The notes under the pieces were generated by a model. The model was given only the letters and a program-made list of their open reading frames with translations. It was not told the origin of the DNA and did not search any database. From a bacterium (GTDB lineage Bacteria; Patescibacteriota; Minisyncoccia; Phycocordibacterales; UBA2100), in assembly GCA_030674455.1 (NCBI GenBank), contig JAUSGQ010000029.1, positions 6,625 through 70,624 on the forward strand: DNA of 64,000 nt, written 5' to 3'. Position 1 is the first letter of the stretch, and each line of letters begins with the position of its first letter. Both the position numbers and the translations under genes were made by a program. Of the stretch, positions 2 to 62,975 are shown piece after piece.

Positions 2-3000
2 TCAACTTCCGGCGACTTAAACATCTCTTCCAACGACAACAACGGCGCTCTAATCAACGACAGTTACTCCGCATGGAACATCAAACTCGGAGGCCAGTCA
101 GACGCCTTCGCAATTCAACGTTCTCCGACAGGCACACTCTCGTACGCCAACTTCTTTAACATCAAGAACAACGGCAATGTCGGCATCGGAACATCTTCTC
201 CATACGCAATGCTCTCCGTTGCAGGCCAAGTCGTCGGCACTTACTTCACCGCCACATCCACCTCGCAAGCCAACACATTCCCGTACGCAAGCACGACCGC
301 GCTCACCGCAAGCGGAAACGCATACCTCGGCACAACGACCATCACAAATCTCGCCGTCTCCAACACGAGTACATCAACATTCGCTGGCGGACTCCAATCG
401 ACATATCTGAACATCACCGGCACATTGGCCACGAGTACATTCGCAAACGGCATCACCACATCCGGCGGAGGACTCGGGATAGGAACATCCACGCCTGCAG
501 GTACAGTCGGCATCAACGGCAACCTATTCGTATCAAATGCAAACGCCTCTTCCACCTTCACCGGCAACGTGGAAGTTTTGGGCGGGCTGAAAATCGGCAC
601 TGGCTCTATTTATCTAAACGGCTCCGCCACTAGCACCTACTCATCTGGACTCCAGGCAAGTGCGCTAAATATCACCGGCACATCCGCAACATCAACATTC
701 GCGCGAGGCATTGACCTCGCTGGTGGATGTTTCAGCATCAACGGCACTTGTGTTGGTGGAGGCGGGACAGACACAGTGGTACGGCTCGGCTCGATACAAA
801 CTTTCAGCGCCTCGTCAACAAATCTCACCTACACAACGCCAGCGAGTACCTCTTATATTGTTGTTGAAGTATGGGGTAGCGGTGGTGGCGGCGGTGGTGG
901 CGGCGATGGTGCCAGCCAGGGCGGCGGTGGCGGCGGCGCTGGCGGGTACTCAATGAAGTTCATTACAAGTCCTGCTTCTACGTACAAATACACGATTACC
1001 GATGGCGGGACTGGCGGTCAAAACGGTGCCAATGGTTCCGCTGGCGGCACGTCATGCTTCGGAACAAACGCCACTGCGTGCACCACTCCGCTCCTAAGCG
1101 CGACCGGAGGCGCCCTTGGGAGTGGCACAGCAGGTGCCGGCGGTGCCGGTGGCGCTGGTTTCAGCGGTGATGTCAATATGACTGGCCAGGGCGGCATTGG
1201 CGGTGGCAACCGCGGTGGGACAGGCGGTAGCGCTCCACGGGGCGGCGGTGGAGGTGTTGGTGGTCCCGAGAATAGCGTTGGCGCGAGTTTCGGCGGCGGC
1301 GGCGGCGGTGCTGCCGCCGCGGGTAGCGCAACAGACGGTGGTAACGGAGGTGTGGGCGGCATCATCGTCTACGAATACAAGACTGTCACATCAGGTACCG
1401 ACCTCGCCGAGAACTATCCTGTTTCTGACCCATCCATATCAGCGGGTGAAATTGTTTCTTTTGACGGAGTGAATCCAATATTCGTTAAGCGTGCGGAGAA
1501 AGGCGAAGGACGACCGCTCGCGGGAATCATTTCCACAAAGCCCGGCCTTCTCCTAGACGATAACGATGACTCGCTCGGAGAAAGGCCCGTCGCTCTTGCC
1601 GGCCGCGTGCCGACGAAAGTTTCCGCAGAGAACGGCCCAATCGCTATCGGCGACCGCATCACGCTTTCCTCGGTGCCGGGTGTCGGTATGAAAGCGAACA
1701 TATTTGACGAATCCATAGGTGTCGCGCTTGAACCGTATGATGCAGACCCTTCGACAATCTCAGGGCAGGCGGGCGTTATCCAAGTCTTTATGAACCTTCA
1801 GCCGGGCATTGACGTGCAGGCAATCGGCAAAGCACTTATCGCTCCCGTTGCAACATCAACGCCCAACACCTTCGACTTCGTCGGCTCGCTAATTGATGCC
1901 ATCGCCGCTCGCATGGGAACCACGACCGTCACGAATGTCGCGCTCACAAATTCATCAACCACTGCGACCGACCTGCTCTGCCTTGGTGGCGATTGCCGCA
2001 CGGCGTGGCCTGACATTGCGACCTCAACGATTGACTTCTCGCAGTACGCGACGCTTGCCGATTTTGCCGTTGCAACCTCCAGTATGTTCGACTTCGTAAG
2101 TCGAACATACGTCACGAAGTATGAATTTGATGCGCTTTTTGCAACCACGACATCCTTGTCCGCCGAAGTCCTTGCGACGAAGGCGGAGCTTGCCGATTTA
2201 ACTACGAACTACGGACTACTGACTACGAACTACTCCACACAAGGAGACACCTTGTCGCAACTCGCATCCGCACTCGCAGGCCTCGCAACTTCTACTCCCG
2301 ATCTATCGCAATACGCATCCCAAGACTGGGTCTCCGCCCTCGTCGCCTCTTCTACGGACTACGCACTACGCACTACGAACTTTTTGACGGGAACAATGAC
2401 AGGAAATATTCTGCCCGACACAGACAACCTCTACGCCCTCGGCTCGCCGGAGAACCGCCTATCTAATGTGTACGCCAAGAACATCAACGCAGGCGACCTC
2501 ACATTCACCGAAACCACGAGCGCAATCTCCGGCGACACCCTCGCCGTCGGCGACATGGTTTCTCTTTACGTCACTTCAACAGCAGGAAGCACCCACACAA
2601 TTCCAATCAACCTCCGCACCGCGCTCAACTCCAACAGCTGGGGGGCCAACAATATCTTCTTCAATACGACAGGAGGATTCGGCATCGGCATCTCCAGCAC
2701 CACAGCTCTCCGAGCGAAGCTTGACGTGGAAGGCGCAATCGCCTCCGGCGACTCCCGCTACCTCACTCTCGCCAACACATCAGGAGCGAACGGCAACGCC
2801 GCCCTCCCGTACAGCTTCACCATCCCCTCAACTTCAGGCGACTTGAACATCTCCTCCAACGACAACAACGGCGCTCTCGTCAACTCCAGCTACTCCGCAT
2901 GGAACATCAACCTTGGAGGCCAATCAGACGCCTTTGCCATACAACGCTCTCCCAATGGAACACTTTCATACGCCAACTTCTTCAACATCAAGAACAACGG

Positions 3001-6000
3001 CAACGTCGGCATCGGAACATCTTCTCCATACGCCATGCTCTCGGTGGCAGGCCAAGTTGTCGGCACTTACTTCACCGCCACATCCACAACACTGGCTAAC
3101 ACCTTCCCATACGCAAGCACGACCGCGCTCACCGCAAGCGGAAACGCATACCTCGGCACAACGACCATCACAAACCTCGCCGTCTCCAACACGAGTACAT
3201 CAACATTCGCTGGCGGGCTCCAATCTACATATCTAAACATCACAGGCACAGTGTCGACATCAACATTCGCCAGAGGTATTGACCTCTCCGGCGGATGCTT
3301 CTCGGTGAATGGCACATGCGTCGGCGGTTCTTCCGTCACGGGTACGACCGGACAGCTTACATACTTCAGCGATACGAATACTGCCGTAGGCACATCCACG
3401 CTCTTTGTCTCCACCGCGAGCAACGTCGGAATCGGAACAACGACGCCCAACTGGACGCTGACATCTTCCAACTCAACAGGCCCTCAGCTTTCCCTCGGCG
3501 ATGGCTCCAACAACTCATGGACATTCAGAAACTCCGGCGCGACACTGTATCTCGCGACTTCCACATACTCCGCCACTTCAACAACAGCGGCTCTTGCCTT
3601 CAACAACTCCACGGGTGCCGCGACATTCGGCTCTCCCGCCACATCAACATTCACAGGAGGAATAACATCTACATACCTGAACATCACCGGCACAAACGCC
3701 ACTTCAACATTCGCTAGAGGAATTGACATCGCGGGCGGATGCTTCGCGATAAATGGAACGTGCGTGGGCGGCTCGTCGCTCACAGGCACCACCGGACAGC
3801 TCGCATACTTTAGCGGTACAGACACCGGAGTTGGAACTTCCACACTATTCATCTCCACAGCAAGCAATGTCGGCATCGGGACGACGACGCCGGGAGCAAC
3901 TCTCACAATCCAAGCCGCTCTCAACGCGACACCATTCATAATTGCATCCTCCACCGGCGCGACGATGCTCTCGGTAGACACGACCGGCGCGCTTTCGGCC
4001 AAATTAAAACAACTCACTGCCGATTACACCGTTGATTCCTCCAGTGCAAGCATCAGTGTCGGCGACGTCGTTTCGTATATCAATGGGAATGCGAAGAAAG
4101 CTAATGCCGTTGTCCCAGGCACCACCATCACCGCCGGCACTCCAGTCGCCGCCAATGCCGTCGCCTCCTCACCCGTCTCCGCCACCACCCTTGACGCCAC
4201 CCACTTCGTGGTGGCATATTCGGGTACTTCAGGCTATGCCAATGCTGTCGTAGGCACCGTCTCCGGCACAACCATCACATACGGCACTCCCGTCGCCCTA
4301 AACGCCGTCGCCTCCACCTACACCTCCGCCACCACCCTTGATTCTACCCACTTTGTGGTGGCGTATAGAAACGGAAGTACAGGCTACGCCAATGCTGTCG
4401 TATCCACCGTCTCCGGTACCACCATCACCGCTGGCACCCCCGTTGCCCTGAACGCCGTTGGCTCCACCTTACAGAATTCAAACTCATCAGCAGTCGCCGC
4501 TCTTGACTCCACCCACTTCGTGGTAGCGTATCGGAACGATGATACCACTTATGCCAACGCCGTCGTCTCCTCAGTCTCCGGTACCACCATCACCGCCGGC
4601 ACTCCCGTAGCGTTGAACGCCGTCGCCTCCAGCTACACCGCCACCGCCTCCCTTGACGCCACCCACTTCGTGGTTACGTATAAGGGCGCCTCAGGCTACG
4701 CCAATGCCGTTGTATCCTCAGTCTCCGGTACCACCATCACCGCCGGCACTCCCGCGGTTCTTAATGCCATCAATTCTTTCTACTCAAATACCGCCTCCCT
4801 TGACGCCACCCACTTCGTGGTAGCGTATTATAACGCGACAACAGGCTTCGGTGACGCCGTCATCTCCTCAGTCTCCGGTACCACCATCACCGCCGGCACT
4901 CCCGTGGCTCTTAATGCTGTTACCTCTACCTCCTACTCCGTCAACGCTCTGGACTCCACCCACTTTGTGGTTGCGTATAATGGCACATCAAACTACGCTA
5001 CCGCCGTCGTTTCTATCGTCTCCGGCACCACTTTCACTCCCGGCACTCCCGTGGCTCTTAATGCCGTTGCATCTGGGTTACATTCCGTTGCGGTCATAGA
5101 CGCCACCCACTTTGTGACGGCGTATCAGAACAACGTTACAACCTACGCTGACGCCGTCGTCTCTAGTCTCAATACCGTTATCGCCGCTGGTACTAACATT
5201 CTCGGCATGGCCACCAACGCTACGACGAGTACTAATAATACGATTACAGTTGCCTCCAACGGCATCGTGACAGGTCTCTCCGGTCTTACCGCTGGAAGCA
5301 CCTACTATTGGAATGGGGCGCTTACCACCACTGCGAGCACCAACTACCCCGTCGGAATCGCGCTCACCACCACCTCAATGCTTCTCAACTCCGGCAATCG
5401 CGGTGCGAGCGCGAGTACCGACCAATTCTTCGGCGATATGATATTCGCCAACAACTTCCGCATCACGGAGAATCAGAGTCTGCCCAACTCGCTCATCTTC
5501 AAGAACCAGCTCAGCCGCGACATCATGTCGCTGGACGAAAACGGCAACATTGCTCTTTCCGGGTTGCTCACGGCCTCCAATATCGGACCGAACATTTTCA
5601 ACCTGCTTGGCACGACTACTATAGATGAGCTCACGGCTTCGACCACCTTGACAAGCTCGGGGCAAGCAAGCACAACACCCACATGGGCAGGGGCGTTCGC
5701 AGACGCGAGTGATACGCTCAAGAGCGCTCTGCAAGAGTTCTCCGACGCGGTAGTTCAAGTCTTCGGCCGGGCAATCTACGCGACAGCGGGCATATTTGAA
5801 AAAATATTTTCAAAAGAGGTGCACACAGACAAACTCTGCGTTTCAGATTCGGAAGGGGAGACATGCGTTACGCGCGCCCAGCTTGATGTGCTTCTTGCTT
5901 CAGCTGCGACTGGAGCCGCTTCCGCCGAAGGCGGAAGTGGCGAAACAGCCAGCTCAACAGTGAGTAGCAGTACTGCCACATCTTCGGATTCTTCCGCGTC

Positions 6001-6385
6001 TTCTGCGTCTAGTTCCGCGCCGTCTGCGGGCGATAGTCAGGTGCCGACTATCGCCATCAACGGCAACAATCCCTCGAACATCACAATAGGCGACACCTAT
6101 GGCGACCTCGGAGCCATCATCACCGGCCCGACAGAATCAGACAAAAATCTTGGCATCTACACATTCCTCGATGGTGTGGCGATGGACACCATACAATTAG
6201 ATACGAGCGTGGCAGGCGAGCATACAATAGATTACGTCGCCACGAACTCCTTCGGCGCCGCGACCAGTACGCGCACAGTGATAATTGAAGCCCCGGCAGA
6301 AGTAGTTGTTGAAGTTCCGGCAGACACGGCAACTACGACAGACTCAACTGCGACTACAACGTCTGCAACAAGTACAACGCCTTAG
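2..6385 (+). CDS. Giant repeat-rich secreted/cell-surface protein, 5'-partial (frame open from window start). Contains NVGIGT(S/T)TP-type motifs, a glycine-rich module, LNITGT-ATSTFARGID-GGCF-INGTCVGG modules, eight ~50-aa 'THFVVAY' repeats, and a C-terminal Ig-like (DUF5011-like) domain with a Ser/Thr-rich linker
   Basis: Frame-2 translation is open from nt 2 and matches the later repeat unit at nt 2829-3250 (internal duplication). The ORF track M at 209 is internal. The C-terminal 'PTIAINGNNPSNITIGDTYGDLGAIITGPT...TRTVII' resembles Ig-like DUF5011 domains. Confidence 0.7.
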   Translation, partial: STSGDLNISSNDNNGALINDSYSAWNIKLGGQSDAFAIQRSPTGTLSYANFFNIKNNGNVGIGTSSPYAMLSVAGQVVGTYFTATSTSQANTFPYASTTALTASGNAYLGTTTITNLAVSNTSTSTFAGGLQSTYLNITGTLATSTFANGITTSGGGLGIGTSTPAGTVGINGNLFVSNANASSTFTGNVEVLGGLKIGTGSIYLNGSATSTYSSGLQASALNITGTSATSTFARGIDLAGGCFSINGTCVGGGGTDTVVRLGSIQTFSASSTNLTYTTPASTSYIVVEVWGSGGGGGGGGDGASQGGGGGGAGGYSMKFITSPASTYKYTITDGGTGGQNGANGSAGGTSCFGTNATACTTPLLSATGGALGSGTAGAGGAGGAGFSGDVNMTGQGGIGGGNRGGTGGSAPRGGGGGVGGPENSVGASFGGGGGGAAAAGSATDGGNGGVGGIIVYEYKTVTSGTDLAENYPVSDPSISAGEIVSFDGVNPIFVKRAEKGEGRPLAGIISTKPGLLLDDNDDSLGERPVALAGRVPTKVSAENGPIAIGDRITLSSVPGVGMKANIFDESIGVALEPYDADPSTISGQAGVIQVFMNLQPGIDVQAIGKALIAPVATSTPNTFDFVGSLIDAIAARMGTTTVTNVALTNSSTTATDLLCLGGDCRTAWPDIATSTIDFSQYATLADFAVATSSMFDFVSRTYVTKYEFDALFATTTSLSAEVLATKAELADLTTNYGLLTTNYSTQGDTLSQLASALAGLATSTPDLSQYASQDWVSALVASSTDYALRTTNFLTGTMTGNILPDTDNLYALGSPENRLSNVYAKNINAGDLTFTETTSAISGDTLAVGDMVSLYVTSTAGSTHTIPINLRTALNSNSWGANNIFFNTTGGFGIGISSTTALRAKLDVEGAIASGDSRYLTLANTSGANGNAALPYSFTIPSTSGDLNISSNDNNGALVNSSYSAWNINLGGQSDAFAIQRSPNGTLSYANFFNIKNNGNVGIGTSSPYAMLSVAGQVVGTYFTATSTTLANTFPYASTTALTASGNAYLGTTTITNLAVSNTSTSTFAGGLQSTYLNITGTVSTSTFARGIDLSGGCFSVNGTCVGGSSVTGTTGQLTYFSDTNTAVGTSTLFVSTASNVGIGTTTPNWTLTSSNSTGPQLSLGDGSNNSWTFRNSGATLYLATSTYSATSTTAALAFNNSTGAATFGSPATSTFTGGITSTYLNITGTNATSTFARGIDIAGGCFAINGTCVGGSSLTGTTGQLAYFSGTDTGVGTSTLFISTASNVGIGTTTPGATLTIQAALNATPFIIASSTGATMLSVDTTGALSAKLKQLTADYTVDSSSASISVGDVVSYINGNAKKANAVVPGTTITAGTPVAANAVASSPVSATTLDATHFVVAYSGTSGYANAVVGTVSGTTITYGTPVALNAVASTYTSATTLDSTHFVVAYRNGSTGYANAVVSTVSGTTITAGTPVALNAVGSTLQNSNSSAVAALDSTHFVVAYRNDDTTYANAVVSSVSGTTITAGTPVALNAVASSYTATASLDATHFVVTYKGASGYANAVVSSVSGTTITAGTPAVLNAINSFYSNTASLDATHFVVAYYNATTGFGDAVISSVSGTTITAGTPVALNAVTSTSYSVNALDSTHFVVAYNGTSNYATAVVSIVSGTTFTPGTPVALNAVASGLHSVAVIDATHFVTAYQNNVTTYADAVVSSLNTVIAAGTNILGMATNATTSTNNTITVASNGIVTGLSGLTAGSTYYWNGALTTTASTNYPVGIALTTTSMLLNSGNRGASASTDQFFGDMIFANNFRITENQSLPNSLIFKNQLSRDIMSLDENGNIALSGLLTASNIGPNIFNLLGTTTIDELTASTTLTSSGQASTTPTWAGAFADASDTLKSALQEFSDAVVQVFGRAIYATAGIFEKIFSKEVHTDKLCVSDSEGETCVTRAQLDVLLASAATGAASAEGGSGETASSTVSSSTATSSDSSASSASSSAPSAGDSQVPTIAINGNNPSNITIGDTYGDLGAIITGPTESDKNLGIYTFLDGVAMDTIQLDTSVAGEHTIDYVATNSFGAATSTRTVIIEAPAEVVVEVPADTATTTDSTATTTSATSTTP
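4095..5170 (+). repeat. Tandem array of about 8 x 150-nt coding repeats inside the giant protein (ANAVVSSVSGTTITAGTPVALNAV...LDATHFVVAY units), possibly propeller-blade-like
   Basis: Repeated peptide units seen in the translation; the nucleotide periodicity of about 150 nt is visible. Confidence 0.75.
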
Positions 6386-8981: not shown

Positions 8982-9027
8982 CTATCTGCGCATATCCCAG
9001 AGGCAAGTCAAAACCATCAAGGCTCAA

Positions 9028-9054
9028 AACCATCAAGGCGACGCCTTGATGGTT
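9028..9054. repeat. 27-nt perfect hairpin (aaccatcaaggcg-a-cgccttgatggtt) at the 3' flank of the RAYT gene. A half-copy lies at 9011-9022
   Basis: Seen in sequence; an identical copy lies at 9762-9788. Confidence 0.9.
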
Positions 9055-9740
9055 TCAGTAAAATAAGGGTCATCGGTCGCGACACTTGCGTAATACGCGC
9101 GGGCGTCCTCGAGCATTTTGCGTGGCGCGGTATTGCGGTACACGTCAAACGCGTCGCGGGAAAGTATTGCGACGATGTCTCGTTTCTCACCCGCAAAATC
9201 CGGAAAACTCGAATAGCGATATCCGCGCAGGAATTTTTCCAGCCGTGCCATGTCGCGCACCGCTCCTTTTTTCCATCCCGGTGCGAAGCGCTCGGCAGGA
9301 TTGCAATGGATGTAGTTGACGACGTGCTGGAAGTAGAGGTCTTCCCCCACATGCCGCGAGCGAAACGGTTTCATAAAAAGATTTCCTGTTCGATCGTTTT
9401 TCTTGTTGAAGTACATCGTGTACGCGGTACCGAGTTTCTGCATAAAGCGTGTGATCCCGCCCTCCATGATCTCCTTGAGAAGCAGGTGAAAATGATTCGG
9501 CATGAGGCAGTATGCCCCGATAGATACAAGAGCATTGGAGCGTTCAAGGGAAATTATCTCGCTCGTCGTTCGCTCCGAGAGATTGCTCCGATGCAGCGTG
9601 TCCGTCGAGTTCGCCAGATAGAGAATCTGTAAGAAGCGTTCCGAATTATCCTCGCTTTCGAAGACTATCCGCTTCTCGATGCCTCTGTTGTAACAGTGGA
9701 ACCATTCGTCGATTTGGAATGGGACTGGACGTTGCGCCAT
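9033..9740 (-). mobile_element. IS200/IS605-type Y1 (HUH) transposase, REP-associated tyrosine transposase (RAYT)-like
   Basis: 'LMPNHFHLLL' HUH motif and 'YIHCNPAE'. Likely start MAQRPVPF (ATG at 9740). The ORF-track start at 9794 lies inside the flanking hairpin. Confidence 0.8.
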
Positions 9741-9761
9741 ACGGCAAGTGTACCACAAGAA

Positions 9762-9788
9762 AACCATCAAGGCGACGCCTTGATGGTT
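9762..9788. repeat. Second copy of the 27-nt perfect hairpin, immediately 5' of the RAYT gene
   Basis: Identical to 9028-9054. Confidence 0.9.
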
Positions 9789-9809
9789 CTTCAAGGAGCG
9801 TCGTGTGGA

Positions 9810-13664: not shown

Positions 13665-14291
13665 TTAGTATTTCTTCTGCGTAATTCTGCGTCCGTTCAG
13701 CGATGGGCCGATAGGTTTGGTATCGGCACCTGTAGACGGTCTGCGTCGTGTCGCTTTTTGCGACACGAAGTGATTCCAATTGTCTTTAGCAAAACGGCCG
13801 GTTTTTTTATAATTCTGTTTCGGCGGAGAGGATATTGTTGAAAAAGTTATCTGCGCTATCTCCATACCGGGGCGCAAAATTATCGGAATGTTGTTCTGGT
13901 TGGTGATTTCAAAAGTGATGTTCAAAAAGTGACCCGGGTTTATTATGCCCGCCGTGTTGTGTATCATCAGCCCGACGCGGGCGAGGGATGACTTGCCACC
14001 TACCTGTATAAGGTAGTGGTCGGAGCCGAAAAATTCTTTAGAAATTCCGAGGACAGAAACTCCGGGGTGAAGCACAAATTCTTTCCCGTCTTTTATATTG
14101 ATTTCGCGCGTTTTTGCATAAATCTTTTTAACAGGGTCAACAAACTGCGAATTGTTCTCATCGTTGACGATGAATTTGTTCCCGAGCAGGATGTCGTACG
14201 AAACCGGCTGGAGCCGCGTTTCCTGGAATGGCTTGATGATAATCTCGCCGCTTTTTACCGCTTTCTTTATATCGACGTCTGACAAAAACAT
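13665..14291 (-). CDS. dcd: dCTP deaminase
   Basis: 'MFLSDVDIKKAVKSGEIIIKPF...VSYDILLG' dCTP deaminase/dUTPase fold start. Confidence 0.8.
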   Translation of the reverse strand: MFLSDVDIKKAVKSGEIIIKPFQETRLQPVSYDILLGNKFIVNDENNSQFVDPVKKIYAKTREINIKDGKEFVLHPGVSVLGISKEFFGSDHYLIQVGGKSSLARVGLMIHNTAGIINPGHFLNITFEITNQNNIPIILRPGMEIAQITFSTISSPPKQNYKKTGRFAKDNWNHFVSQKATRRRPSTGADTKPIGPSLNGRRITQKKY

Positions 14292-15858: not shown

Positions 15859-16431
15859 ATGAAAAAGCCCCTAATCACTGAGGTGGTAGCAATCGGGAGA
15901 AATCGGGAGCTTGGCAAGAACGATAAACTTCTGTGGCATATTCCCGATGACCTAAAACGCTTCAAGCGTCTGACTTTGGGGCATCCGATAATCATGGGAA
16001 GAAAGACGTTCGAATCAATAGTCGGGTACATCGGAGAACCGCTTCCGGGGCGCACGAACATAATAGTTACTCGCCAGACAAGCAAGTTCATCGCGGACAA
16101 TCCTTATTTGCTTATTCGCGCGAATAAGCAAATAGTTGGGAATACCAATTTATCTGCGCAGGATGGAGTGATTGTCGTTAGTTCCATCGAGGAGGGGATT
16201 GAAAAGGCGCGAGAGGAAAATCCGAAAGAAATTCACATCGGAGGCGGCGCGGAGATTTACGAACAAGCGCTTCCATATATAGACAAACTGCAGCTGACAA
16301 TAATCGACGACGAAAAACCAGCGGACACGTTTTTCCCGCCCTACGAACACATATTTACAAAAAAGGTTTTTGAGGAGTCGCGCGAGTGGAACGGCATCAA
16401 ATACAAGTGGATAGATTTAGAGCGCGATTGA
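15859..16431 (+). CDS. folA: Dihydrofolate reductase, with an extra ~20 aa relative to canonical DHFR that coincides with a 30-nt palindromic element
   Basis: 'LLWHIPDDLKRFKRLTLGHPIIMGRKTFESI...LPGRTNIIVTR' and 'IHIGGGAEIYEQALP' DHFR motifs. The insert 'NPYLLIRANKQIVGN' is encoded by palindrome 16105-16134. Confidence 0.85.
   Translation: MKKPLITEVVAIGRNRELGKNDKLLWHIPDDLKRFKRLTLGHPIIMGRKTFESIVGYIGEPLPGRTNIIVTRQTSKFIADNPYLLIRANKQIVGNTNLSAQDGVIVVSSIEEGIEKAREENPKEIHIGGGAEIYEQALPYIDKLQLTIIDDEKPADTFFPPYEHIFTKKVFEESREWNGIKYKWIDLERD
16105..16134. repeat. 30-nt perfect palindrome tatttgcttattcgcgcgaataagcaaata, in-frame within folA
   Basis: Core ttgcttattcgcgcgaataagcaa is shared with palindromes at 27159-27194 and 27504-27539. 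Confidence 0.9.
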
Positions 16432-35949: not shown

Positions 35950-36115
35950 TTGCAACGTGCGTTTCGGTTGCCGATGTTCTGGCCTACGCGAATGGAAACA
36001 GTAAAGGCACAGACGGTCAAACAAAATGAGTGCATAACTATTGAGATAATCAAAGTTTTCTTCAGAATTGAGAAGGCGTCCAGTTTGTGTTATGTATATG
36101 GCAGCGGACGAGACG
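35950..36115. repeat. About 165-bp direct repeat, copy 1 (about 85-90 % identical to 37025-37190), flanking the IS200-like element
   Basis: Seen in sequence. Confidence 0.8.
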
Positions 36116-36180
36116 TTATTTTTTTTGGTGAGTCCATTAAAGAGGAGAGCAGCGTGCATATTTTATTCGCGGGGAAAAGG

Positions 36181-36265: not shown

Positions 36266-36940
36266 ATGGGAAGAGCGCTTCGTACTGATGTCGGAGGTTA
36301 TGTGTACCATGTATTAAATCGAGCGAACGCTCGCTCGACGATATTCAGGACAAAGGCAGATTACGAGTTGTTTGAAAAGGTGCTTGAAGAGGCCAAGGAA
36401 TTAATCGGCATGAGAATTCTTGCGTACTGCATCATGCCAAATCACTGGCATCTCGTGCTGTATCCCAAGAGTGATGGCGATTTGTCGAAGTTTGTTAATT
36501 GGCTGACGTTAACGCACACCCAACGCTGGCATGCCGCACATAATACGATTGGACACGGCCACTTGTATCAAGGGCGATACAAATCATTTCTGTGCGAGGA
36601 TGATGTTCACTTTATTCATCTCGTGCGATATGTGGAGCGTAATGCTTTACGAGCCAATCTTGCGCCTCGGGCAGAGGATTGGCGATGGGGAAGTGCGTGG
36701 CGACGGATTAACGGTACCGCGAAGCAGAAAGAATTGCTCGGTTCATGGCCGGTGCATATGCCGCAACGATATGTTGAACTCTTGAATCATCCGCAATCGG
36801 AGGAAGAAGTTAATGCGATGCGGCGGGCAGTTACCCGTGGCAATCCGTATGGTTCAGACGAATGGATAGAAAGGATGATAAAGAAGTTCCGTCTCGAAAC
36901 AACGGTTCGTTCGAGGGGCAGACCAAGAAAAGGTTCCTGA
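36266..36940 (+). mobile_element. IS200/IS605-type Y1 (HUH) transposase
   Basis: 'YHVLNRAN...RILAYCIMPNHWHLVL...HLYQGRYKSF...YVERNALRANL'. Start taken at MGRALRTD; the ORF-track start at 36068 reads through the flanking repeats. Confidence 0.8.
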
Positions 36941-37024: not shown

Positions 37025-37190
37025 GTCGCAGAATACGGTTGCCAATGTTTCTGGCCTGAATAAATGGAAACAGTAAAGACACAGACGGTCAAACAAAATG
37101 AGTGCATAACTATTGAGCTATGGTCAAAGTTCTTTGCCGAATTGAGAACGCGTCCAGTTTGTGTTATGTATATGGCAGCGGACGAGGTCT
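37025..37190. repeat. About 165-bp direct repeat, copy 2
   Basis: Matches 35950-36115. Confidence 0.8.
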
Positions 37191-37235
37191 GATTTCGTCC
37201 TCGAACATCCCGTCACTTTATGGAAGGACAGCACC

Positions 37236-52774: not shown

Positions 52775-52875
52775 TCCGAATCTACGAATTATCCGAATGC
52801 TACGAATGGCTACAAATGTGGGAATTTATTATTTGTAGTTATTTGTAGATTGGAATCCATTTGTAGATTGGTACA
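52775..52875. repeat. Intergenic repeat element (cgaatgctacgaatggctacaaatgt ... attatttgtagattggaat), copy 1, upstream of argJ
   Basis: Shared with 54980-55110. Confidence 0.75.
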
Positions 52876-54979: not shown

Positions 54980-55110
54980 TACCAATCTACAAATGTATTC
55001 CAATCTACGAATGCCAATCTACAAATGATACGAATGCTACGAATGGCTACAAATGTTAGTATTTCACATTTGTAATTATTTGTAGATTGGAATATATTCG
55101 CAGATTGGAA
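54980..55110. repeat. Intergenic repeat element, copy 2 (three ccaatctacaaatg units, then an inverted atttgtagattgg), upstream of argD
   Basis: Seen in sequence. Confidence 0.75.
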
Positions 55111-55122
55111 CATGTTTAAATT

Positions 55123-56298: not shown

Positions 56299-56350
56299 AT
56301 AGGGAAATAGATGAAATTGAGGATGATTGAGATACTTCCCGTTTGAGTTG

Positions 56351-56386
56351 TTCTATTCCAGTGTTTTGCAAAACACTGGAATAGAA
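56351..56386. promoter_or_regulatory. 36-nt perfect palindrome ttctattccagtgttttgcaaaacactggaatagaa, 6 nt upstream of the ArsR-type regulator gene
   Basis: Perfect dyad. Further copies at 56646-56675 and 57479-57530. Confidence 0.6.
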
Positions 56387-56391
56387 CTAGA

Positions 56392-56676
56392 ATGTTAAGA
56401 ATGGCAAATCGCAGTTACCGCACCATAGAACGCATCGTGAAGGGTTACGCCAACCACCGGCGGTTAGAGATATTAGATTTATTGCGCAAGGAACCGGAGC
56501 TTTCTGTGGAGGACATCTCTGAAAAACTGAAGATCGGGTATCAGAATGCTTCCGACCATATTCGCAAGCTTTCAATCGCGGGCCTTGTGGCCAAGCGGAA
56601 CGAGGGTCCAAGCGTTCGACACAAGCTTACGCCTCGGGCAGAGTCTATTCTAGTGTTTTGCAAAACACTGGAATAA
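56392..56676 (+). CDS. ArsR-family HTH transcriptional regulator (94 aa). Its last ~10 codons are encoded by a copy of the palindrome
   Basis: 'HRRLEILDLLRKEPELSVEDISEKLKIGYQNASDHIRKLSIAGLV'. Confidence 0.7.
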   Translation: MLRMANRSYRTIERIVKGYANHRRLEILDLLRKEPELSVEDISEKLKIGYQNASDHIRKLSIAGLVAKRNEGPSVRHKLTPRAESILVFCKTLE

Positions 56677-56717
56677 GAAGAGCGGCGGATGAGATTGTGA
56701 TATTTGCTTCATGTGCT

Positions 56718-57467
56718 ATGGAAACTTCAATCCGGCCAAAATACGATTTGGACAAAATAAAGTTTTCCACCGGTTCGCCGACATGGGAACGCGCGGTTGA
56801 ATTGTTCGAGAAGGGAAAGGTAACGAAATTTCAGGACAATGAAGGCTCATATTCGGCAACTGTCATTGGCACAAAACCGTATGAAGTTTGGGTATCTGCG
56901 GAGAAATTCGACGTAGGAGACTGCAATTGCTATCTCGGGCAGAAGGATGAATTATGCAAACATCTTGTTGCACTTGCGATACGGGTTGTAACTGGTGGCA
57001 ACTCGCTTTCTGAGAAACAAAAAAAGATGGTCGCTGTGCCTATTTGTAGTGGCAGGGAGGGAGAACTGGATAAGGAGAAGTTACAATCTGTGCAGACCGC
57101 AATTTCCGTGGCAATGAAATGTATCAAGGCCTATAACGGACCATCACGCACGTGGTTTATATATCAGGCTTCGCTCGCGGAAGGATGCACTCGCCTTGCC
57201 GCCACTTTTTCCGAATTACCCGTGAGCGAGCAAACTGCACAAATCGTCTTAAAGACACTTTTGCGTCTTGATGAAAAGCTTTGCCGAGGCGGAGTGGATG
57301 ATTCCGATGGCGCTGTCGGCGGTTTCATAGAGGACGCGGTCAGTATGCTCCTAGAGTATGTGAAATTAGAGCCATCATGCATAGGCGCATTTGAAATACT
57401 CAAAGGTCAATCGACGTGTTTCGAGTGGGAAGAGCCGCTCTTGAAAATCTCCAAAAGAGAAGGGTAG
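56718..57467 (+). CDS. SWIM zinc-finger domain protein
   Basis: 'DCNCYLGQKDELCKHLVA' = C-x-C-x9-C-x-H SWIM signature. Start taken at METSIRP. Confidence 0.6.
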   Translation: METSIRPKYDLDKIKFSTGSPTWERAVELFEKGKVTKFQDNEGSYSATVIGTKPYEVWVSAEKFDVGDCNCYLGQKDELCKHLVALAIRVVTGGNSLSEKQKKMVAVPICSGREGELDKEKLQSVQTAISVAMKCIKAYNGPSRTWFIYQASLAEGCTRLAATFSELPVSEQTAQIVLKTLLRLDEKLCRGGVDDSDGAVGGFIEDAVSMLLEYVKLEPSCIGAFEILKGQSTCFEWEEPLLKISKREG

Positions 57468-57478
57468 CTTACGACTTC

Positions 57479-57530
57479 TCTATTCCAGTGTTTTGCCCAC
57501 CAGAGGTCGGCAGGCAAAACACTGGAATAG
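57479..57530. repeat. Third copy of the ccagtgttttgc...gcaaaacactgg palindrome, with an 18-nt insertion in the loop
   Basis: Seen in sequence. Confidence 0.85.
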
Positions 57531-57670
57531 GGGAAATGGGAGAAAGGAATAACGGGTTTCGTAAAGATGCTCCCTGTTTGTCCACGCATTGCGTGGCTAC
57601 AAACAGCAGGTCTATCGGTTCATGATAGACACCTGTAGACGGCCCGCAGGGCATGTACTGCGGGTAAGAT

Positions 57671-59131
57671 TTGTGGGATGATTTGTCTATGATTCCTCCC
57701 GAAAAAGTGACTCTATTGGAAAGTCTGGTATTTGGGCAGCGAGTGGCTGAAGAAGAGCCCCGTCTGGAGGAGTACTTTGTTGAAACTTTGCTTTGGCGAA
57801 AGATTTTGCGTGGGGAAATAGACATCGTGTACGGAATGAAAGGGTCCGGAAAAAGCGCAATTTTCCATCTTCTGACAACTGGTCGAAATATGCCCGCTGG
57901 CATCAGGGTAATTCCTGCGGAGTATACTCGTGGAACGCCGGTTTTTAATGCAATAAAAACCGATCCACCTCCATCAGAAGTTCAGTTTGTGTATCTCTGG
58001 AAGCTGTATGTACTTTCACTTATTGCGAACGACGCCGAGATATTGAAAGTTCTCAAAAGCGATCACGCAGAACTTGTAGCAGAACTAGGTTCGGTGGGTG
58101 TAATTGGTGAGGATAAGGGTGAAATTCTAAAAAAAGCTCTACGGTATGTAGATACCATAAAAATACCCAATCTCGTCGAAGTGGGAATTAGTCACTCACA
58201 GGAGGCAGAGGACAAAAGAATAAATGTAGATCGAGCGATGGACGTACTTAATCATATTTTATCAAAAACAGGAAGTAACGTGTGGGTCTTGTTCGATCGA
58301 CTGGACTCGGTGTTTGATGATAACTCAGGTCTTGAAGAAAACGCACTCCGGGCATTATTTAAGACCTACAGAGATTTCTCAAGATACGATCATATATGTC
58401 TCAAGATATTTCTTCGTACCGATATCTGGAAAGCATTAACCAGTAAGGGATTTCGGGAGGCAAGTCACATAACGCAATCCGAAACAATTGAGTGGTCGGA
58501 GGTAAACATCGTAAACCTCATTGTCAGGCGCATTCTTAGCAATCCAAATATTGCCACTTTTTACCATGTTGTGCCAGAGCAAGTATTGGCCAATTATGAC
58601 GAACAGAAGAAGCTCTTTTATAGAATATTTCCAGATCAAATTGACGCAGGTTCAAGAAAGTCGGAAACCATAAGATGGTTGATGACGCGGGTGGGGGATG
58701 GAACACGACAGGTTGCACCTCGCGAACTCATTCATCTCTTAAATCAGTCGAAAGATGAGCAAATCAAAGCGTTGGAGCTTGGTGAATCTGTACCTGATGG
58801 AGAACATCTCTTTTCACCAGCAGCTATGAAAAGAGCATTGCCCGCAGTATCTCAAGTTCGTCTGGAACAAACTATCTTTGCTGAATACCCCAATTTGAGA
58901 CAGCACATTCTCATGCTGGAGAGCGAGAAAGCAACACAAACTCTCGAAACATTATCGAAAATCTGGAACGTGGATGAAGGGGAAACACTTAAAATTGCGT
59001 CAACCCTAGTTGAGATTGGTTTCTTTGAGCTACGTGGAGAAAAGAGAAAGCCGGAGTATTGGGTACCCTTCCTCTATCGGCCTCATTTAAAATTGATTCA
59101 GGGCAAAGCGGAGGAGGATGAATATGCTTAA
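57671..59131 (+). CDS. Uncharacterised P-loop NTPase (Walker A GMKGSGKSA, Walker B VWVLFDRLD); candidate defence/toxin-system ATPase
   Basis: Walker motifs seen. No confident family assignment. Operonic with a zeta-toxin-like gene. Confidence 0.5.
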   Translation: MWDDLSMIPPEKVTLLESLVFGQRVAEEEPRLEEYFVETLLWRKILRGEIDIVYGMKGSGKSAIFHLLTTGRNMPAGIRVIPAEYTRGTPVFNAIKTDPPPSEVQFVYLWKLYVLSLIANDAEILKVLKSDHAELVAELGSVGVIGEDKGEILKKALRYVDTIKIPNLVEVGISHSQEAEDKRINVDRAMDVLNHILSKTGSNVWVLFDRLDSVFDDNSGLEENALRALFKTYRDFSRYDHICLKIFLRTDIWKALTSKGFREASHITQSETIEWSEVNIVNLIVRRILSNPNIATFYHVVPEQVLANYDEQKKLFYRIFPDQIDAGSRKSETIRWLMTRVGDGTRQVAPRELIHLLNQSKDEQIKALELGESVPDGEHLFSPAAMKRALPAVSQVRLEQTIFAEYPNLRQHILMLESEKATQTLETLSKIWNVDEGETLKIASTLVEIGFFELRGEKRKPEYWVPFLYRPHLKLIQGKAEEDEYA

Positions 59132-59294
59132 AGCCATTTTGTTGCGGTATTGCAAACTCTCTGTCCAAAGTTCTTCTTGACGCGCATCATAAGCTTGATT
59201 GGGCAGTTGACGCCTGCTATGGCAAAAGAAATTTCAAATCTGAACCGGAGCGATTGGAGTTTTTGTTTGATTTATACAAGAAACTAACAAACGT

Positions 59295-60008
59295 ATGAAT
59301 ATAATCAATGAGGATAAAGAGCTTGCGGAGAGGGCGATGATTTGGGTTAAGCAGAATCAAAGACAGATTGTTGAAGATTTTGCTGGAAAGTTTCTTCCTG
59401 CTCCGGAACAAGCCGTATCAATCTTCATGGCAGGTTCACCGGGGGCCGGTAAAACTGAGTTCTCTCGACGCTTAATCGAAAAACAATTCGGCGCAGAGAA
59501 CAAATATATTATGCGTATTGATGCAGATGAAATTCGTTCGAAACTACCGTGTTATGTGGCAGGCAAATCGCATATTTTTCAACCTGCTGTTTCCGTTGCG
59601 GTTGAAAAGATACACGATCACGCCTTAGGCACGGGTAAAAGTTTCGTCTTGGATGGGACACTTACCAACCTAAAGAAGGCGCGCGACAATATTAAAAGGT
59701 CTCTTGAGAAGTCTCGGGTGGCATTCATCGAATATATCTATCAGGACCCCATCGTTGCGTGGGATTTCACCCAAAAAAGGGAGGCAGTGGAGGGTAGAAA
59801 TATTCCGCGGGATGCGTTCATAGACCAGTTCTTCCTTGCCAGAGAGAATGCTACAATTCTGAAGAGAGAGTTTGGGAAAGATATCACTCTCGACGTCGTC
59901 ACAAGGAACATCAGTACTAATGAGTACAAGTATTGGTTTAACGTTGACAATGTTGACAGCTGTATAAAAGATGAGTATAGTAAGGACCAGCTTTTAAAGA
60001 ATTTATGA
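59295..60008 (+). CDS. Zeta-toxin-family P-loop kinase-like protein
   Basis: 'IFMAGSPGAGKTEFSRRL...YIMRIDADEIR' parallels the zeta/PezT Walker A plus downstream catalytic Asp motif (GGQPGSGKT...IDNDTFK). Confidence 0.6.
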   Translation: MNIINEDKELAERAMIWVKQNQRQIVEDFAGKFLPAPEQAVSIFMAGSPGAGKTEFSRRLIEKQFGAENKYIMRIDADEIRSKLPCYVAGKSHIFQPAVSVAVEKIHDHALGTGKSFVLDGTLTNLKKARDNIKRSLEKSRVAFIEYIYQDPIVAWDFTQKREAVEGRNIPRDAFIDQFFLARENATILKREFGKDITLDVVTRNISTNEYKYWFNVDNVDSCIKDEYSKDQLLKNL

Positions 60009-60238
60009 AAGACTTTATTTACATTATCAAGTCTCTTTTCAAAAGAGAGGAGATAAAGATGCTTCCCAAGGTAAACCATAAAGAGGAAGTAACTGACCCC
60101 GTGTATCACTTTTTTGTGCATGGAAAAGCAATCGAAAGAAAGCGTGTATACGATAAGGCTCTTAAGGCTGCAGAAGCAGACCAAAAGGAAATCATTCGGA
60201 AATACAAATTACTTGAAAAGGATTTAGCGTCTGCGTAG
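60005..60238 (+). CDS. Small hypothetical protein (77 aa), translationally coupled (ATGA overlap) to the zeta-like gene
   Basis: ORF with overlapping start/stop. Predicted helical/coiled C-terminus. Confidence 0.4.
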   Translation: MKDFIYIIKSLFKREEIKMLPKVNHKEEVTDPVYHFFVHGKAIERKRVYDKALKAAEADQKEIIRKYKLLEKDLASA

Positions 60239-60566
60239 CCGCCCAGTGTCCGGCGATATTCTCAATTGCTGCCACTGCGTCCGTCTTGAGAATTGGTCGA
60301 CGAGGTGGGCGTCGGCACTTGTAGACAGGCCGTCTACAGGCGAATCAGTAGATTTCGTAGCTTGGCCTGCCTATCTCAACCCCATAGGCCACGATTTTCC
60401 ACAGTCTTCAAGATTGCACAAAAATACTGTGTGATATAGTGCGGTCGTGTCAGCACAAAAACCCACCCGTCCACAGGCGAATCAGCAGATTTCGTGGCTT
60501 GGCCTGCCGATATCTGTCCTATCGGCCACTGCGAAAAAGCATGCGGGAGTGCGCCGCGTAATCAGG

Positions 60567-62975
60567 ATGGAAGAGGCCGGCATCGGAGACGTGCGGCGCG
60601 TGGGAGGGAAAAATGCATCTCTCGGCGAGATGATTCAGGAGCTTTCTTCGCAAGGCATTCGCGTGCCGACGGGGTTCATAATCACTACCGACGGTTATCG
60701 CTCGTTCATAGAAGAAGCGGGGTTGACGCCGTTTATTAAGACGACGCTCAAGAATGTAAGCGCGAAGAACCTCGATGTTCTTGAGAAGTCGTGCCAAAAA
60801 GTACGGCACGCGATCGAGAAGGCAGACATTCCTATCTCGCTTCAGAATGAGATTACGGAAGCGTATGCGGAAATGGAGAAGCAGTATGGAAATAATATCG
60901 ACGTGGCCATCCGCTCAAGCGCCACGGCCGAAGACCTTCCGGGCGCCAGCTTTGCCGGCGGGTACGAAACATATCTTGGCATTCGCGGGAAGAACGATGT
61001 CTTGAAGGCCGTCAAATCATCGTTCGCATCGCTTTTCACCGCGCGCGCTGTCTCGTACAGAATAGATAAAAAGTTCGACCATTTCGCAATAGCGCTCTCA
61101 GTCGCAATTCAGCGGATGGTGCGCACAGACATGGGCGCCTCCGGCGTCATGTTTACTATCGATACGGAAACAGGTTTTGAAGACGTCATCATTATCAACG
61201 GTGCTTACGGATTGGGTGAAATGGTCGTGCAAGGGCACGTCATACCGGATGAATACCTGGTCGCAAAGCATCGCCTGCACCACGCGCCGGCTCCCATCAT
61301 CGGCAAAAAGCTCGGAGCGAAGAGCTCGAAGATGGTCTATGGCCCAAAGGGAGGCATTAAGCCTGTGAAGGTGGTTAAGACGAACGCGAAAGACAGAGCG
61401 AAGTTCGTCCTCAATGACGAGCAAATACTGATGCTCGCGCACTGGGCCGAGATAATTGAAAAGCACTACACGAAAAAGCGCGGCACGAAGAGCCCGATGG
61501 ATATTGAATGGGGGCTCGACGGGAGAACGAACGAACTGTTCGTTTTGCAGGCGCGGCCGGAAACTGTCCAAGTCTCAAAAGACCGCGGAAAGCTAAAAGA
61601 ATATATTTTGAGAGAAGAGGGAACGTTGCTTGCCAAAGGATTTTCTGTCGGCAATAAAATTGTCACCGGCAAAGCACGCGTCATTGGAAGTTTGCGCGAC
61701 ATGAGCACGCTGCTTCCCGGCGAAGTACTAATCACCGAAATGACAGACCCGGATTGGGAGCCCATCATGAAAAAAGCCGCCGCAATCGTTACCGACAAGG
61801 GCGGGCGAACATCGCATGCGGCAATCGTGAGCCGCGAACTGGGCCTTTCGGCTGTGGTTGGCGCGGAGCCTGTCACGAGGCACATAAAGACCGGACAAAT
61901 GGTTACGGTAGATACTACTGGAAGCGAGGGGAGGATTTACGCGGGCGCGCTGAAATTTGAAGTTCGGGAAACAAATGTTGCAAGCATTCCCAAGACGCGG
62001 ACAAAGATAACGATGAACATCGCCACGCCGGACACGGCGTTCGAAAAATCATTCCTGCCGAATAGCGGCGTAGGGCTTGCCAGAGAAGAATTCGTTATCG
62101 CCGCATCTGTCGGCGTCCACCCCTTGGCACTCTTGCACTACAAAGAGCTTGAACCGAAGATGCAGAAAAAGGTTGATGCCATTACGCGCGGCTGGGAAGA
62201 CAGGAGCGCGTATTATGTCGACAACCTCGCGTTCGGCATCGCAAAAATCGCCGCCGCCTTTTATCCGAAGCAGGTGATCGTGCGATTCTCCGATTTTAAG
62301 AGCAACGAGTACCGCTCGCTCCTTGGCGGAGATCTGTTTGAGCCGCATGAAGAAAATCCGATGTTGGGCTGGCGGGGCGCGTCGCGCTACTATGACCCGA
62401 AATTCCGCGAAGCATTTCTTTTGGAATGCCGCGCGATGCACAAAGTAAGAGTCTCCATGGGATTGGACAATGCGATACCGATGATCCCATTCTGCCGGAC
62501 TCTTGAGGAGGGGCGAAAGGTACTGGAAACAATGAAAGACGGGGGGTTATTCCCCAATCTGCTTCCGCACGAAGAGGAAACGGATGCATCGGTTACGCCC
62601 GTTATCGTCATGTGCGAGGTGCCGTCGAATGCGATTCTTGCCGAGGAGTTCTTGGAGATTTTTGACGGCATGTCTATCGGCTCAAATGATTTGACCCAGC
62701 TCACGCTCGGTCTTGACCGCGACTCGGGAATCGTGAACAGAGTGGCAGACGAGAACGATCCGGCAGTAAAGAAATTAATTTCGCAGGTTATTGCCGTTTG
62801 CAGAAAGAAGAAGAAATACGTCGGCATTTGCGGGCAAGGGCCGTCGGACCATCCGGCCTTTGCGAAATTCCTCGTTGAACAGGGAATTGAAAGCATGTCT
62901 TTGAATCCTGATTCTGTAATCAAGACAACGATAGCCGTGGCAAAAATTGAGGCGAAGATGCACAAAAGCCGGTAG
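60567..62975 (+). CDS. ppsA: Phosphoenolpyruvate synthase (pyruvate, water dikinase)
   Basis: 'VGGKNASLGEM', 'GGRTSHAAIVSRELG', C-terminal PEP-utilising domain. Start taken at MEEAGIGDV; the ORF-track start at 60447 would read through an upstream direct repeat. Confidence 0.85.
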   Translation: MEEAGIGDVRRVGGKNASLGEMIQELSSQGIRVPTGFIITTDGYRSFIEEAGLTPFIKTTLKNVSAKNLDVLEKSCQKVRHAIEKADIPISLQNEITEAYAEMEKQYGNNIDVAIRSSATAEDLPGASFAGGYETYLGIRGKNDVLKAVKSSFASLFTARAVSYRIDKKFDHFAIALSVAIQRMVRTDMGASGVMFTIDTETGFEDVIIINGAYGLGEMVVQGHVIPDEYLVAKHRLHHAPAPIIGKKLGAKSSKMVYGPKGGIKPVKVVKTNAKDRAKFVLNDEQILMLAHWAEIIEKHYTKKRGTKSPMDIEWGLDGRTNELFVLQARPETVQVSKDRGKLKEYILREEGTLLAKGFSVGNKIVTGKARVIGSLRDMSTLLPGEVLITEMTDPDWEPIMKKAAAIVTDKGGRTSHAAIVSRELGLSAVVGAEPVTRHIKTGQMVTVDTTGSEGRIYAGALKFEVRETNVASIPKTRTKITMNIATPDTAFEKSFLPNSGVGLAREEFVIAASVGVHPLALLHYKELEPKMQKKVDAITRGWEDRSAYYVDNLAFGIAKIAAAFYPKQVIVRFSDFKSNEYRSLLGGDLFEPHEENPMLGWRGASRYYDPKFREAFLLECRAMHKVRVSMGLDNAIPMIPFCRTLEEGRKVLETMKDGGLFPNLLPHEEETDASVTPVIVMCEVPSNAILAEEFLEIFDGMSIGSNDLTQLTLGLDRDSGIVNRVADENDPAVKKLISQVIAVCRKKKKYVGICGQGPSDHPAFAKFLVEQGIESMSLNPDSVIKTTIAVAKIEAKMHKSR

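Follow-up and report, generated by a model that had tools for sequence, protein, structure and literature searches.

A probable mobile family of CGTC-tagged hairpin repeats in groundwater Patescibacteria

Rickettsia palindromic elements (RPEs) are selfish palindromic repeats that sit in frame within coding genes, where they are tolerated as an extra peptide, and they are also found in non-coding DNA. RPE-1 is about 100-150 bp in length and is confined to Rickettsia; these elements were reportedly described by Ogata et al. in 2000. Among repetitive extragenic palindromes (REPs), GTAG- and CGTC-tagged superfamilies are known from eight phyla (Di Nocera, De Gregorio and Rocco 2013, BMC Genomics 14:522; PMC3733652). 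The same study equated RPE-4 and RPE-6 of Rickettsia with CGTC REPs, listed intragenic REPs, many of which lie in genes for replication and repair (dnaE of R. conorii among them), and reported no transposase associated with CGTC REPs. In these superfamilies the unpaired terminal tag is GTAG or CGTC, with TGTC and CCTC as variants of the latter, it lies 0-2 nt from the stem, and the total size is 20-40 bp; the four CGTC families described have a stem of 8-9 bp starting with A/T, a loop of 4-5 nt and a CCA tail. In REPIN/RAYT systems, a single-copy HUH Y1 transposase, the REP-associated tyrosine transposase or RAYT, is presumed to act in trans to move the hairpin repeats (Nunvar 2010, PMC2817692; Bertels and Rainey, PMC3337134). 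The present analysis concerns a stretch of 64,000 nucleotides from a patescibacterial genome (GenBank assembly GCA_030674455.1, contig JAUSGQ010000029.1, positions 6,625 to 70,624), hereafter the window, in which short repeats flank a block of genes between argD and ppsA. We consider it highly probable that these repeats are a small non-autonomous, hairpin-bearing element of the REP kind, with a 5' CGTC tag (GTAG on the other strand), which forms a dispersed mobile family.

Repeat copies in the window and anatomy of the element

An initial annotation of the window had noted short inverted and direct repeats around an NTPase-zeta island. The motif on which it was based, CCTGTAGACGGCC, is present at 57632-57644 (+), as is the near-palindrome CTTGTAGACAGGCCGTCTACAGG at 60318-60340. 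The reverse-complementary partner GGCCGTCTACAGG is an exact match as described, but is found at 60328-60340, offset by 2 nt from the 60326-60338 given. Similarly, the direct repeat near ppsA is real but longer than the 45 bp reported, extending over 63 nt at 84% identity (60330-60392 versus 60467-60529, spacing 137 nt); the 40-letter string quoted for it deviates at 3 positions.

A whole-window repeat search identified same-orientation copies of one architecture at 13706, 57609 and 60295 (copies A, B and C). In each, G is followed by a 7-bp stem that encloses a loop of 7 nt, and behind the second stem arm come AC and (C/T)TGTAGAC(G/A)G. Their stems differ (GCCGATA, GTCTATC and GTCGACG), and each is self-complementary, the first two perfectly and the third with one G-T pair. 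Two 63-nt repeats (D and E) comprise the opposite-strand motif, a conserved block of 27-28 nt and a hairpin of like kind. The window thus contains five copies of the element in three places, at 13.7 kb (A), 57.6 kb (B) and 60.3-60.5 kb (C, D and E) (Table 1). Copy A, 44 kb from the island, had been missed, as had the hairpin that accompanies each motif with a stem sequence of its own. The bracket around the island, described as inverted, is direct in that C runs the same way as B; the inverted partner is a third copy, D, which abuts C tag-to-tag, and it is this abutment that gives rise to the near-palindrome.

These repeats exceed chance expectation. Allowing at most one mismatch, the window contains an 11-mer 4 times where 0.52 occurrences are expected, and none of 100 shuffles reached 4; a 35-mer occurs twice against 0 expected. 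No Rfam family matched the window at gathering score. With E values up to 1 allowed for 60250-60600, the sole match was a microRNA model, a chance hit (E 0.74; 17 bits against a gathering score of 70).

Table 1. Coordinates of repeat copies, genes and other features in the window, and genes with internal copies on related contigs
Feature	Location	Strand	Description
Copy A, short form	13704..13741	-	CCGTCTACAGG T GCCGATAccaaaccTATCGGC CC; dcd C-terminal tail, just upstream of thyA
Copy B, short form	57609..57644	-	Hairpin GTCTATC/GATAGAC; intergenic, SWIM gene / Sll1717-family ATPase gene; left border of island block
Copy C, short form	60295..60330	-	Degenerate tag CCTGTCTACAAG; hairpin GTCGACG/CGTCGGC
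Copy D, long form, 63 nt	60330..60392	+	Intergenic, just upstream of ppsA promoter
Copy E, long form	60467..60529	+	In frame, ppsA codons 8-27, peptide RPQANQQISWLGLPISVLSA
ppsA (phosphoenolpyruvate synthase)	60447..62975	+	Pfam; start read as GTG 60447, not ATG 60567
Putative ppsA promoter	60414..60440	+	TTGCAC, 15 nt, TGaTATAGT
Sll1717-family P-loop ATPase, 480 aa	57689..59131	+	"NTPase" of the initial annotation; NF047389, 208 bits versus cut-off 75; PADLOC PDC-M28C, 1e-23
Zeta-toxin family kinase (cargo)	59295..60008	+	PF06414, 5.8e-29
orf77, 77 aa (cargo)	60005..60238	+	No family match
Y1/HUH transposase gene	36266..36940	+	PF01797, 5e-18; HUH motif NHWHLV; tyrosine motif YQGRYKS
Y1/HUH transposase gene	9033..9794	-	Between two 100% identical 29-nt palindromes (9026-9054, 9760-9788)
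tRNA-dihydrouridine synthase gene (dus)	Contig L119		Element within single Dus Pfam match
DNA polymerase III alpha gene (dnaE)	Contig L114		Element in PHP domain, between HLHVHS and LALTDNGN
ABC-F gene	Contig L100		Element in linker between two ABC ATPase domains
Ribosomal protein S1 gene	Contig L122		Element in N-terminal region

From its 5' end the full element comprises CCGTCTACAGG, a block of 27 nt that may be absent (CGAATCAGCAGATTTCGTGGCTTGGCC), T, a hairpin with a 7-bp stem and a 7-nt loop (GCCGAYN...NRTCGGC), and CC. The short form, represented by A, B and C, is about 36 nt in size (34-36), and the long form, represented by D and E, is 60-63 nt. An alignment of 28 distinct long copies, collected from the window and from related metagenome contigs (see below) and freed of duplicates, displays a conserved, single-stranded-looking core of 38 nt beside a freely covarying hairpin; its stem is 6-7 bp long and starts with GCCG, its loop has 4-9 nt, mostly 7, and the tail is CC[CA]. 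The hairpin is maintained through compensatory substitutions: 96.9% of the cells are paired, 5 of the 7 pairs have changed on both sides, and none of 500 shuffles scored as high. A few G-T pairs are present in the stem.

The tag CGTC occupies element positions 2-5 in 23 of the 28 long copies, and the other strand reads GTAGACG, its GTAG being the complement of a CTAC that overlaps the tag. Variants include TGTC in copy C, CCGTCC in copy E of the window and in L103, L112 and L126 (GTGG on the other strand in copy E), and the degenerate forms CCTTCG in L097 and TGTCCT in L104. Tag and stem are separated by TACAGGT (7-8 nt) in short copies and by 34-35 nt in long ones. Removal of the 27-nt block from the long form gives the short form; L096 has one copy of each kind in tandem, and their hairpins are identical.

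All length variants of the element differ by multiples of 3, the hairpin measuring 18 or 21 nt and the long form exceeding the short by 27 nt. Four of the six reading frames are open (3 forward and 1 reverse), and the remaining two reverse frames hold TAG or TGA; copy D has stop codons in one forward frame (frame b). With such lengths and open frames, a copy that enters a gene would add 12-21 residues without breaking it.

On L097 (6634-6670) the sequence CCATCTACAGGCGATTGGGTACAATCGGATGCC, which has the same tag and a different body, directly follows a long copy and might represent a third form. It is located in the open reading frame (ORF) of an HTH_17 protein that holds more than one element copy, and a similar ORF on L128 holds two long copies.

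Dispersal, empty sites and copies inside genes

Metagenomes were scanned with one exact pattern, CAGGCGAATCAGNAGATTTCG, which specifies 20 bases of the 27-nt block. The scan returned 39 contigs with about 30 distinct sites from several groundwater data sets, comprising the Hainich H43 well and samples of the Joint Genome Institute (JGI) and of the Rifle-style C687J series; a single metagenome, Ga0209542, contributed 12 of the 39 loci, which represent about 9 distinct sites. Aligned copies are near-identical from CCGTCTACAGG to the foot of the hairpin, and the flanks are unrelated immediately outside CCGTC...CGGCC. Covariance models detected 31 long and 11 short copies in about 320 kb, made up of the window and related metagenome contigs, and the same two models found 0 copies in five loci of other Parcubacteria. 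With window copies A-C as its sole input, a covariance model recovered 8 additional short copies (E 3e-10 to 4e-5), and this recovery is independent because the contigs had been fetched by a pattern in the 27-nt block, which is absent from that model. Most copies are singletons, the exceptions being the tag-to-tag pair C/D and tandem pairs of a short and a long copy in L096 and L113. The family is dispersed in a groundwater clade of Parcubacteria related to Kaiserbacteria. A scan of viral contigs found nothing.

Related genomes differ in whether an orthologous site holds a copy, and they provide exact empty sites for copies A and E. L097 and L126 are syntenic with the window at about 77-81% nucleotide identity. 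In L097, which matches window 9.8-16 kb, the thyA-dcd junction lacks copy A and the dcd tail is different and shorter. In L126, which matches window 50-56 kb, a long copy lies between a major facilitator superfamily (MFS) gene and argC, where the window has none.

The boundaries of copy E in ppsA were read from relatives. Three homologues of this gene, P0121, P0122 and P0123 (the last from Cand. Kaiserbacteria GW2011_GWA2_49_19, contig L138), are 93%, 92% and 88% identical. Their N-termini read MSASKLTTVKRNAGKPRVIRMEEAG in P0121 and MSAPKPTTAKKHTAVRRVIRMEEAG in L138, as compared with VSAQKPT-[RPQANQQISWLGLPISVLSA]-TAKKHAGVRRVIRMEEAG in the window. MSA(S/P/Q)K...VIRMEEAG is conserved in P0121 and L138, with synonymous differences in codons 2-3. 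This comparison places the true start at GTG 60447, as in L132 and L138. At the junction, L138 has AAAACCCA-CC-ACTGCG where the window has AAAACCCA-CC[CGTCCACAGG...CTATCGGCC]ACTGCG. Copy E is therefore a clean net insertion of 60 nt with a 2-nt CC ambiguity at the junctions, and L132 and L138 have empty sites. The initial annotation was right to suspect a small secondary insertion here; it had placed it in the ppsA promoter region, however, and had taken the N-terminal extension for a mis-read, when the insertion is in frame and the extension is real, its start being common to both relatives. Between the end of the putative promoter and the GTG there are 6 nt, and L132 and L138 share this promoter; it was read from the sequences, as its 15-nt spacer caused the consensus scanner to miss it. 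By this reading ppsA appears to be leaderless. In a search of genome contigs, the best representative of ppsA (L002, 72% identical) has different neighbours and no motif.

Insertion into genes is common. An ORF that extends at least 50 codons to either side spans 14 of the 31 long copies and 4 of the 11 short ones (18/42), and some further copies are located at gene ends. Four of the interrupted genes are listed in Table 1. In Dus, comparison with the solved structure 1vhn puts the extra residues in the interdomain linker after GRxxxGxPxxF. In DnaE, E. coli residues 2-130 align with 154 query residues, and the insert predicted from the open frame is PSTGESADFVARPAATNGG. The predicted peptides recur in unrelated proteins as PSTGESADFVA[WR]PA..., R[LP]QANQQISWLGLP... 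and SVYRRISRFRGLACR..., or, from the other strand, as ...SAGQATKSADSPVDG. Within the window itself, the dcd ORF (13665-14291) contains copy A in frame and ends ...TRRR-PSTGADTKPIGP-SLNGRRITQKKY before the stop.

Two Logan contigs of run SRR13727527 (L001 and L082), which match the window at 100%, start and end inside repeats, at window positions 55025, 56377, 57490 and 60496; the repeats thus break short-read assemblies of this organism. In exact-protein look-ups, the argD and ATPase proteins were found only on short Logan contigs that terminate in repeats, and the zeta toxin and the ppsA product read from ATG 60567 had no record.

The argD-ppsA spacer and rival explanations

By Pfam the genes in this part of the window are argC, argJ, argB, argD, an ArsR-type regulator, a SWIM-finger protein, then copy B, a 480-aa protein, the zeta-toxin kinase and a 77-aa ORF, followed by C, D and ppsA. 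The 480-aa protein is the Sll1717-family ATPase, 100% identical to NCBI Q7S01_04845. Both this ATPase and the SWIM protein match candidate defence models of PADLOC, PDC-M28C and PDC-S62, respectively. G+C content is 38-45% over 57.7-60.25 kb, compared with about 52% around it. That the block is an insertion, as first proposed, is borne out by L138, in which argD and ppsA are 139 nt apart. In L132 (ppsA 93%), the spacer holds an S41 peptidase gene and an ArsR gene, not the cargo of the window. The spacer (window 56300-60450; L132 4390-6380; L138 9861-10001) is a hotspot with different cargo in each relative, that of the window being ArsR, SWIM, the Sll1717 ATPase, the zeta toxin and orf77, and it looks like a small defence-type variable region. 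The junction alignment called for at the outset gave a right boundary, homology with the relatives resuming exactly at the right end of D (GGCCAC/GATTTTCC). ArsR was rejected as an anchor for the left junction, since the window and L132 proteins are 32% identical and not orthologues.

The Sll1717 ATPase is cargo of the variable region, separate from the repeat element; homologous genes, 71-83% identical, are found in unrelated contexts without these repeats. On L083 (about 3030-3200) a 75% identical ATPase gene adjoins a tRNA gene and then a partial copy of the same tRNA, an arrangement that would fit tRNA integration in that genome. The ArsR and SWIM genes have a palindrome of their own. A 30-nt perfect palindrome, TATTCCAGTGTTTTGCAAAACACTGGAATA, occurs before ArsR (56352-56383), at the ArsR/SWIM junction (56644-56675) and after SWIM (57480-57530), where a loop of 15 nt divides it; the sequence has the look of an operator. 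In L132, another palindrome (L132 5835-5872 and 6236-6259) flanks the non-orthologous ArsR gene on both sides. Near-identical terminator-like hairpins also bracket single genes on two other Parcubacteria contigs, L086 (1790-1825 and 2450-2485; PaaX_M-domain) and L088 (2050-2080 and 3505-3535; CreD), and this pattern of a gene between matching palindromes recurs in the window.

The initial annotation regarded the repeats as att-like scars of an integrated module. In such a scheme B and C would be attL/attR-like, the cassette having entered by site-specific or homologous recombination between a resident and an incoming copy and having left one direct copy on each side. The block is indeed missing from close relatives, B and C have the same orientation and lie about 45-60 nt from the first and last cargo genes, and other genes in the window and its relatives are likewise bracketed by matching palindromes. 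In L138, the argD stop is followed by CCTGTAG-CAGATGCGAATC-GGCCAC in the spacer, possibly the worn remnant of a C+D composite predating the cargo, although this 25-nt resemblance may be due to chance. Against this, B and C align to copy A at 72% and 67%, their hairpin arms differ, and all they have in common is CAC.TGTAGAC, so that an identical core is lacking. Neither an integrase nor a transposase was detected among the island ORFs with Pfam, PADLOC and NCBIfam. ArsR and SWIM, which are also missing from the relatives, lie outside B, and homologous ATPase genes elsewhere lack the element. Copy A is 44 kb away and the same element is found at dozens of unrelated, cargo-free sites, some within genes; such dispersal fits the ubiquitous genome-wide motif that the initial annotation itself had named as incompatible with its reading. 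Because of the dozens of unrelated sites, the lack of an identical B/C core or of a recombinase in the block, and the bare ATPase homologues, the repeats are not scars of an insertion, and B and C are ordinary members of a dispersed family rather than att cores. Such an origin of the B/C bracket is improbable, also in the weaker version in which recombination at a resident copy assisted the entry of the cargo. Compared with known att sites, the likeness is in short direct-orientation repeats at both ends of a strain-specific block and an empty site in relatives; in contrast, the element lacks an identical core, a recombinase or a tRNA target (no tRNA gene is present in the window) and is not confined to island borders.

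Alternatively, the repeats might be cis-regulatory, serving as transcription-factor operators or as RNA terminators, attenuators or a small RNA that control ppsA and the island genes. D is just upstream of the ppsA promoter, the C/D near-palindrome resembles an operator, the hairpin covaries as structured RNAs do, and the presence of a few G-T stem pairs may also be counted in favour. However, orientation with respect to genes is mixed (A is sense in dcd, B and C are antisense to flanking genes, D and E are sense to ppsA), many copies lie within coding regions in four frames and on both strands, and orthologous positions in relatives with a conserved promoter have no copies. No T-run follows the hairpin, no Rfam model matches, and lengths in multiples of three make sense only for translated DNA. 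A regulatory role is thus very hard to sustain, and we give it little credence.

Several other candidates were rejected. Integron attC sites are excluded by the lack of RYYYAAC/GTTRRRY cores and of an integrase, and an IS200/IS605 mini-element by the presence of one hairpin instead of two differing ends. The C/D near-palindrome, which might suggest a Xer/dif-like site, is merely two abutting copies. For hammerhead and other small ribozymes, the core motifs are in an unworkable order and Rfam gives no match.

The spacers before argJ (52779-52875) and argD (54980-55112) contain iteron arrays of ATT[TC]GTAGATTGG / CTAC[GA]AAT, which form long imperfect palindromes of 97 nt that are 85% alike. Operator arrays and a further repeat family of GTAG type are both conceivable. 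TGTAGA and GTAG.TTGG are common to these iterons and the element; relatedness could not be shown. Further palindromic or direct repeat families are found in intergenic DNA of the window at 16105/27162/27507, 26414/38134/38823/43887, 16499/49972 and 11218-11353/37982-38112, and a 2058-aa ORF with extensive internal repeats occupies 209-6385.

Relation to known repeats and possible mobility

As in CGTC/GTAG REPs, the copies of this element are dispersed small palindromes with an unpaired terminal tag, complementary stem changes and a short C-rich 3' tail, they occur as singletons plus tag-to-tag or tandem dimers, and some lie in ORFs, including dnaE. The short form is within the 20-40 bp range of the described families, the long form (60-63 nt) outside it. 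Unlike those families, the element has its tag 7-8 nt (short form) or 34-35 nt (long form) from the stem, a GC-rich stem of 7 bp with a 7-nt loop, an optional 27-nt module and lengths that are all multiples of three, and its host belongs to the Patescibacteria, which are not among the eight phyla. The mismatch in stem, loop and tail geometry makes it a new family rather than a member of CGTC-1 to CGTC-4, within the CGTC/GTAG-tagged REP kind and in Patescibacteria. A full-text literature search, limited in coverage, found no paper linking REPs, MITEs or RPEs with this phylum. The resemblance to RPEs, compared here by description only, lies in the in-frame position inside conserved genes (dus, dnaE, the ABC-F gene, ppsA) of a small-genome bacterium; the element differs in being 36 or 60-63 nt long with a modular 27-nt block.

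By analogy with REPs and RAYTs, a HUH (Y1) tyrosine transposase acting in trans might spread the copies in the form of single-stranded hairpins. The position of B and C on either side of the cargo would reflect the tolerance of this intergenic spacer, and possibly also the homology that repeats offer for recombination. As in REPIN/RAYT systems, the window has two Y1 genes, each flanked by its own palindromes. The gene at 36 kb lies between GAAAAGGTGTCAGG repeats of inverted orientation, two copies of GAAAAGGTGTCAGGAA being found upstream and three of CTGACACCTTTTC downstream, and this module is contained in a 145-nt direct duplication (35977-36121 / 37049-37195). Unlike in those systems, neither of the two is flanked by the CGTCTACAGG element, the element occurs mostly as singletons and not as inverted doublets, and GTAG is not immediately 5' of the hairpin. 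A tblastn search with the window Y1 protein found homologues in L107, L070 and L095, none of them flanked by the element; those of L107 (11187-11849) and L095 (3694-4515) have their own palindromes.

Several points weigh against a mobile, dispersed family. No transposase flanked by the element was detected in the approximately 0.5 Mb searched, where the Y1 genes of the window, L095 and L107 are flanked by other palindromes, and no consistent target-site duplication was seen in the flanks of 20 copies, the 2-nt CC ambiguity at E being the only trace. The copies of this genome were counted within 64 kb (5 copies), and no intact copy was seen in the closest relatives (L132-L138), each represented by 14-19 kb. 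That the inserts are translated is predicted from open frames and conserved flanks. A census of element-derived peptides by word-indexed protein search gave 2 hits for 18 candidates, and HMMER, run in full over 1.84 billion representatives, gave 5, among which only 2 are genuine copies of the element and the others an unrelated repeat protein. So few element-bearing proteins imply that the family is either narrow or poorly indexed, and a census at the protein level says little about the spread of the element.

A more far-reaching idea, which we offer as speculation with small prospects, is that tagged hairpin repeats and Y1 (HUH) genes form a working system for gene-cassette capture in ultra-small genomes. 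Hairpin repeats would mark landing sites in tolerant spacers, and new cargo, here candidate defence genes, would be inserted at the repeats, its ends becoming bracketed by direct copies. Instances might be B and C around the ATPase-zeta block and perhaps the Y1 gene at 9.0-9.8 kb, the 36 kb Y1 module, ArsR/SWIM, L086, L088 and L132. If this were so, the argD-ppsA hotspot would be integron-like, with single-strand HUH chemistry in place of a tyrosine integrase.

For annotation, the consequences are direct. The start of ppsA is corrected to 60447 with a 20-codon insert that is probably selfish, the dcd tail is partly repeat-derived, and gene callers as well as methods that predict domain boundaries will misjudge genes carrying the element. 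Copies should serve well as markers of strains, and they account for the contig breaks seen when these organisms are assembled. Genomes streamlined to about 1 Mb are normally considered poor in selfish DNA; such genomes would here hold a REP-type family together with several RAYT-like genes. Repeat insertions seem to be tolerated in essential genes (dnaE, ppsA), as in Rickettsia. With its multiple-of-three design and a conserved core beside a covarying hairpin, the element would provide a clean system in which to address the mobility of CGTC REPs.

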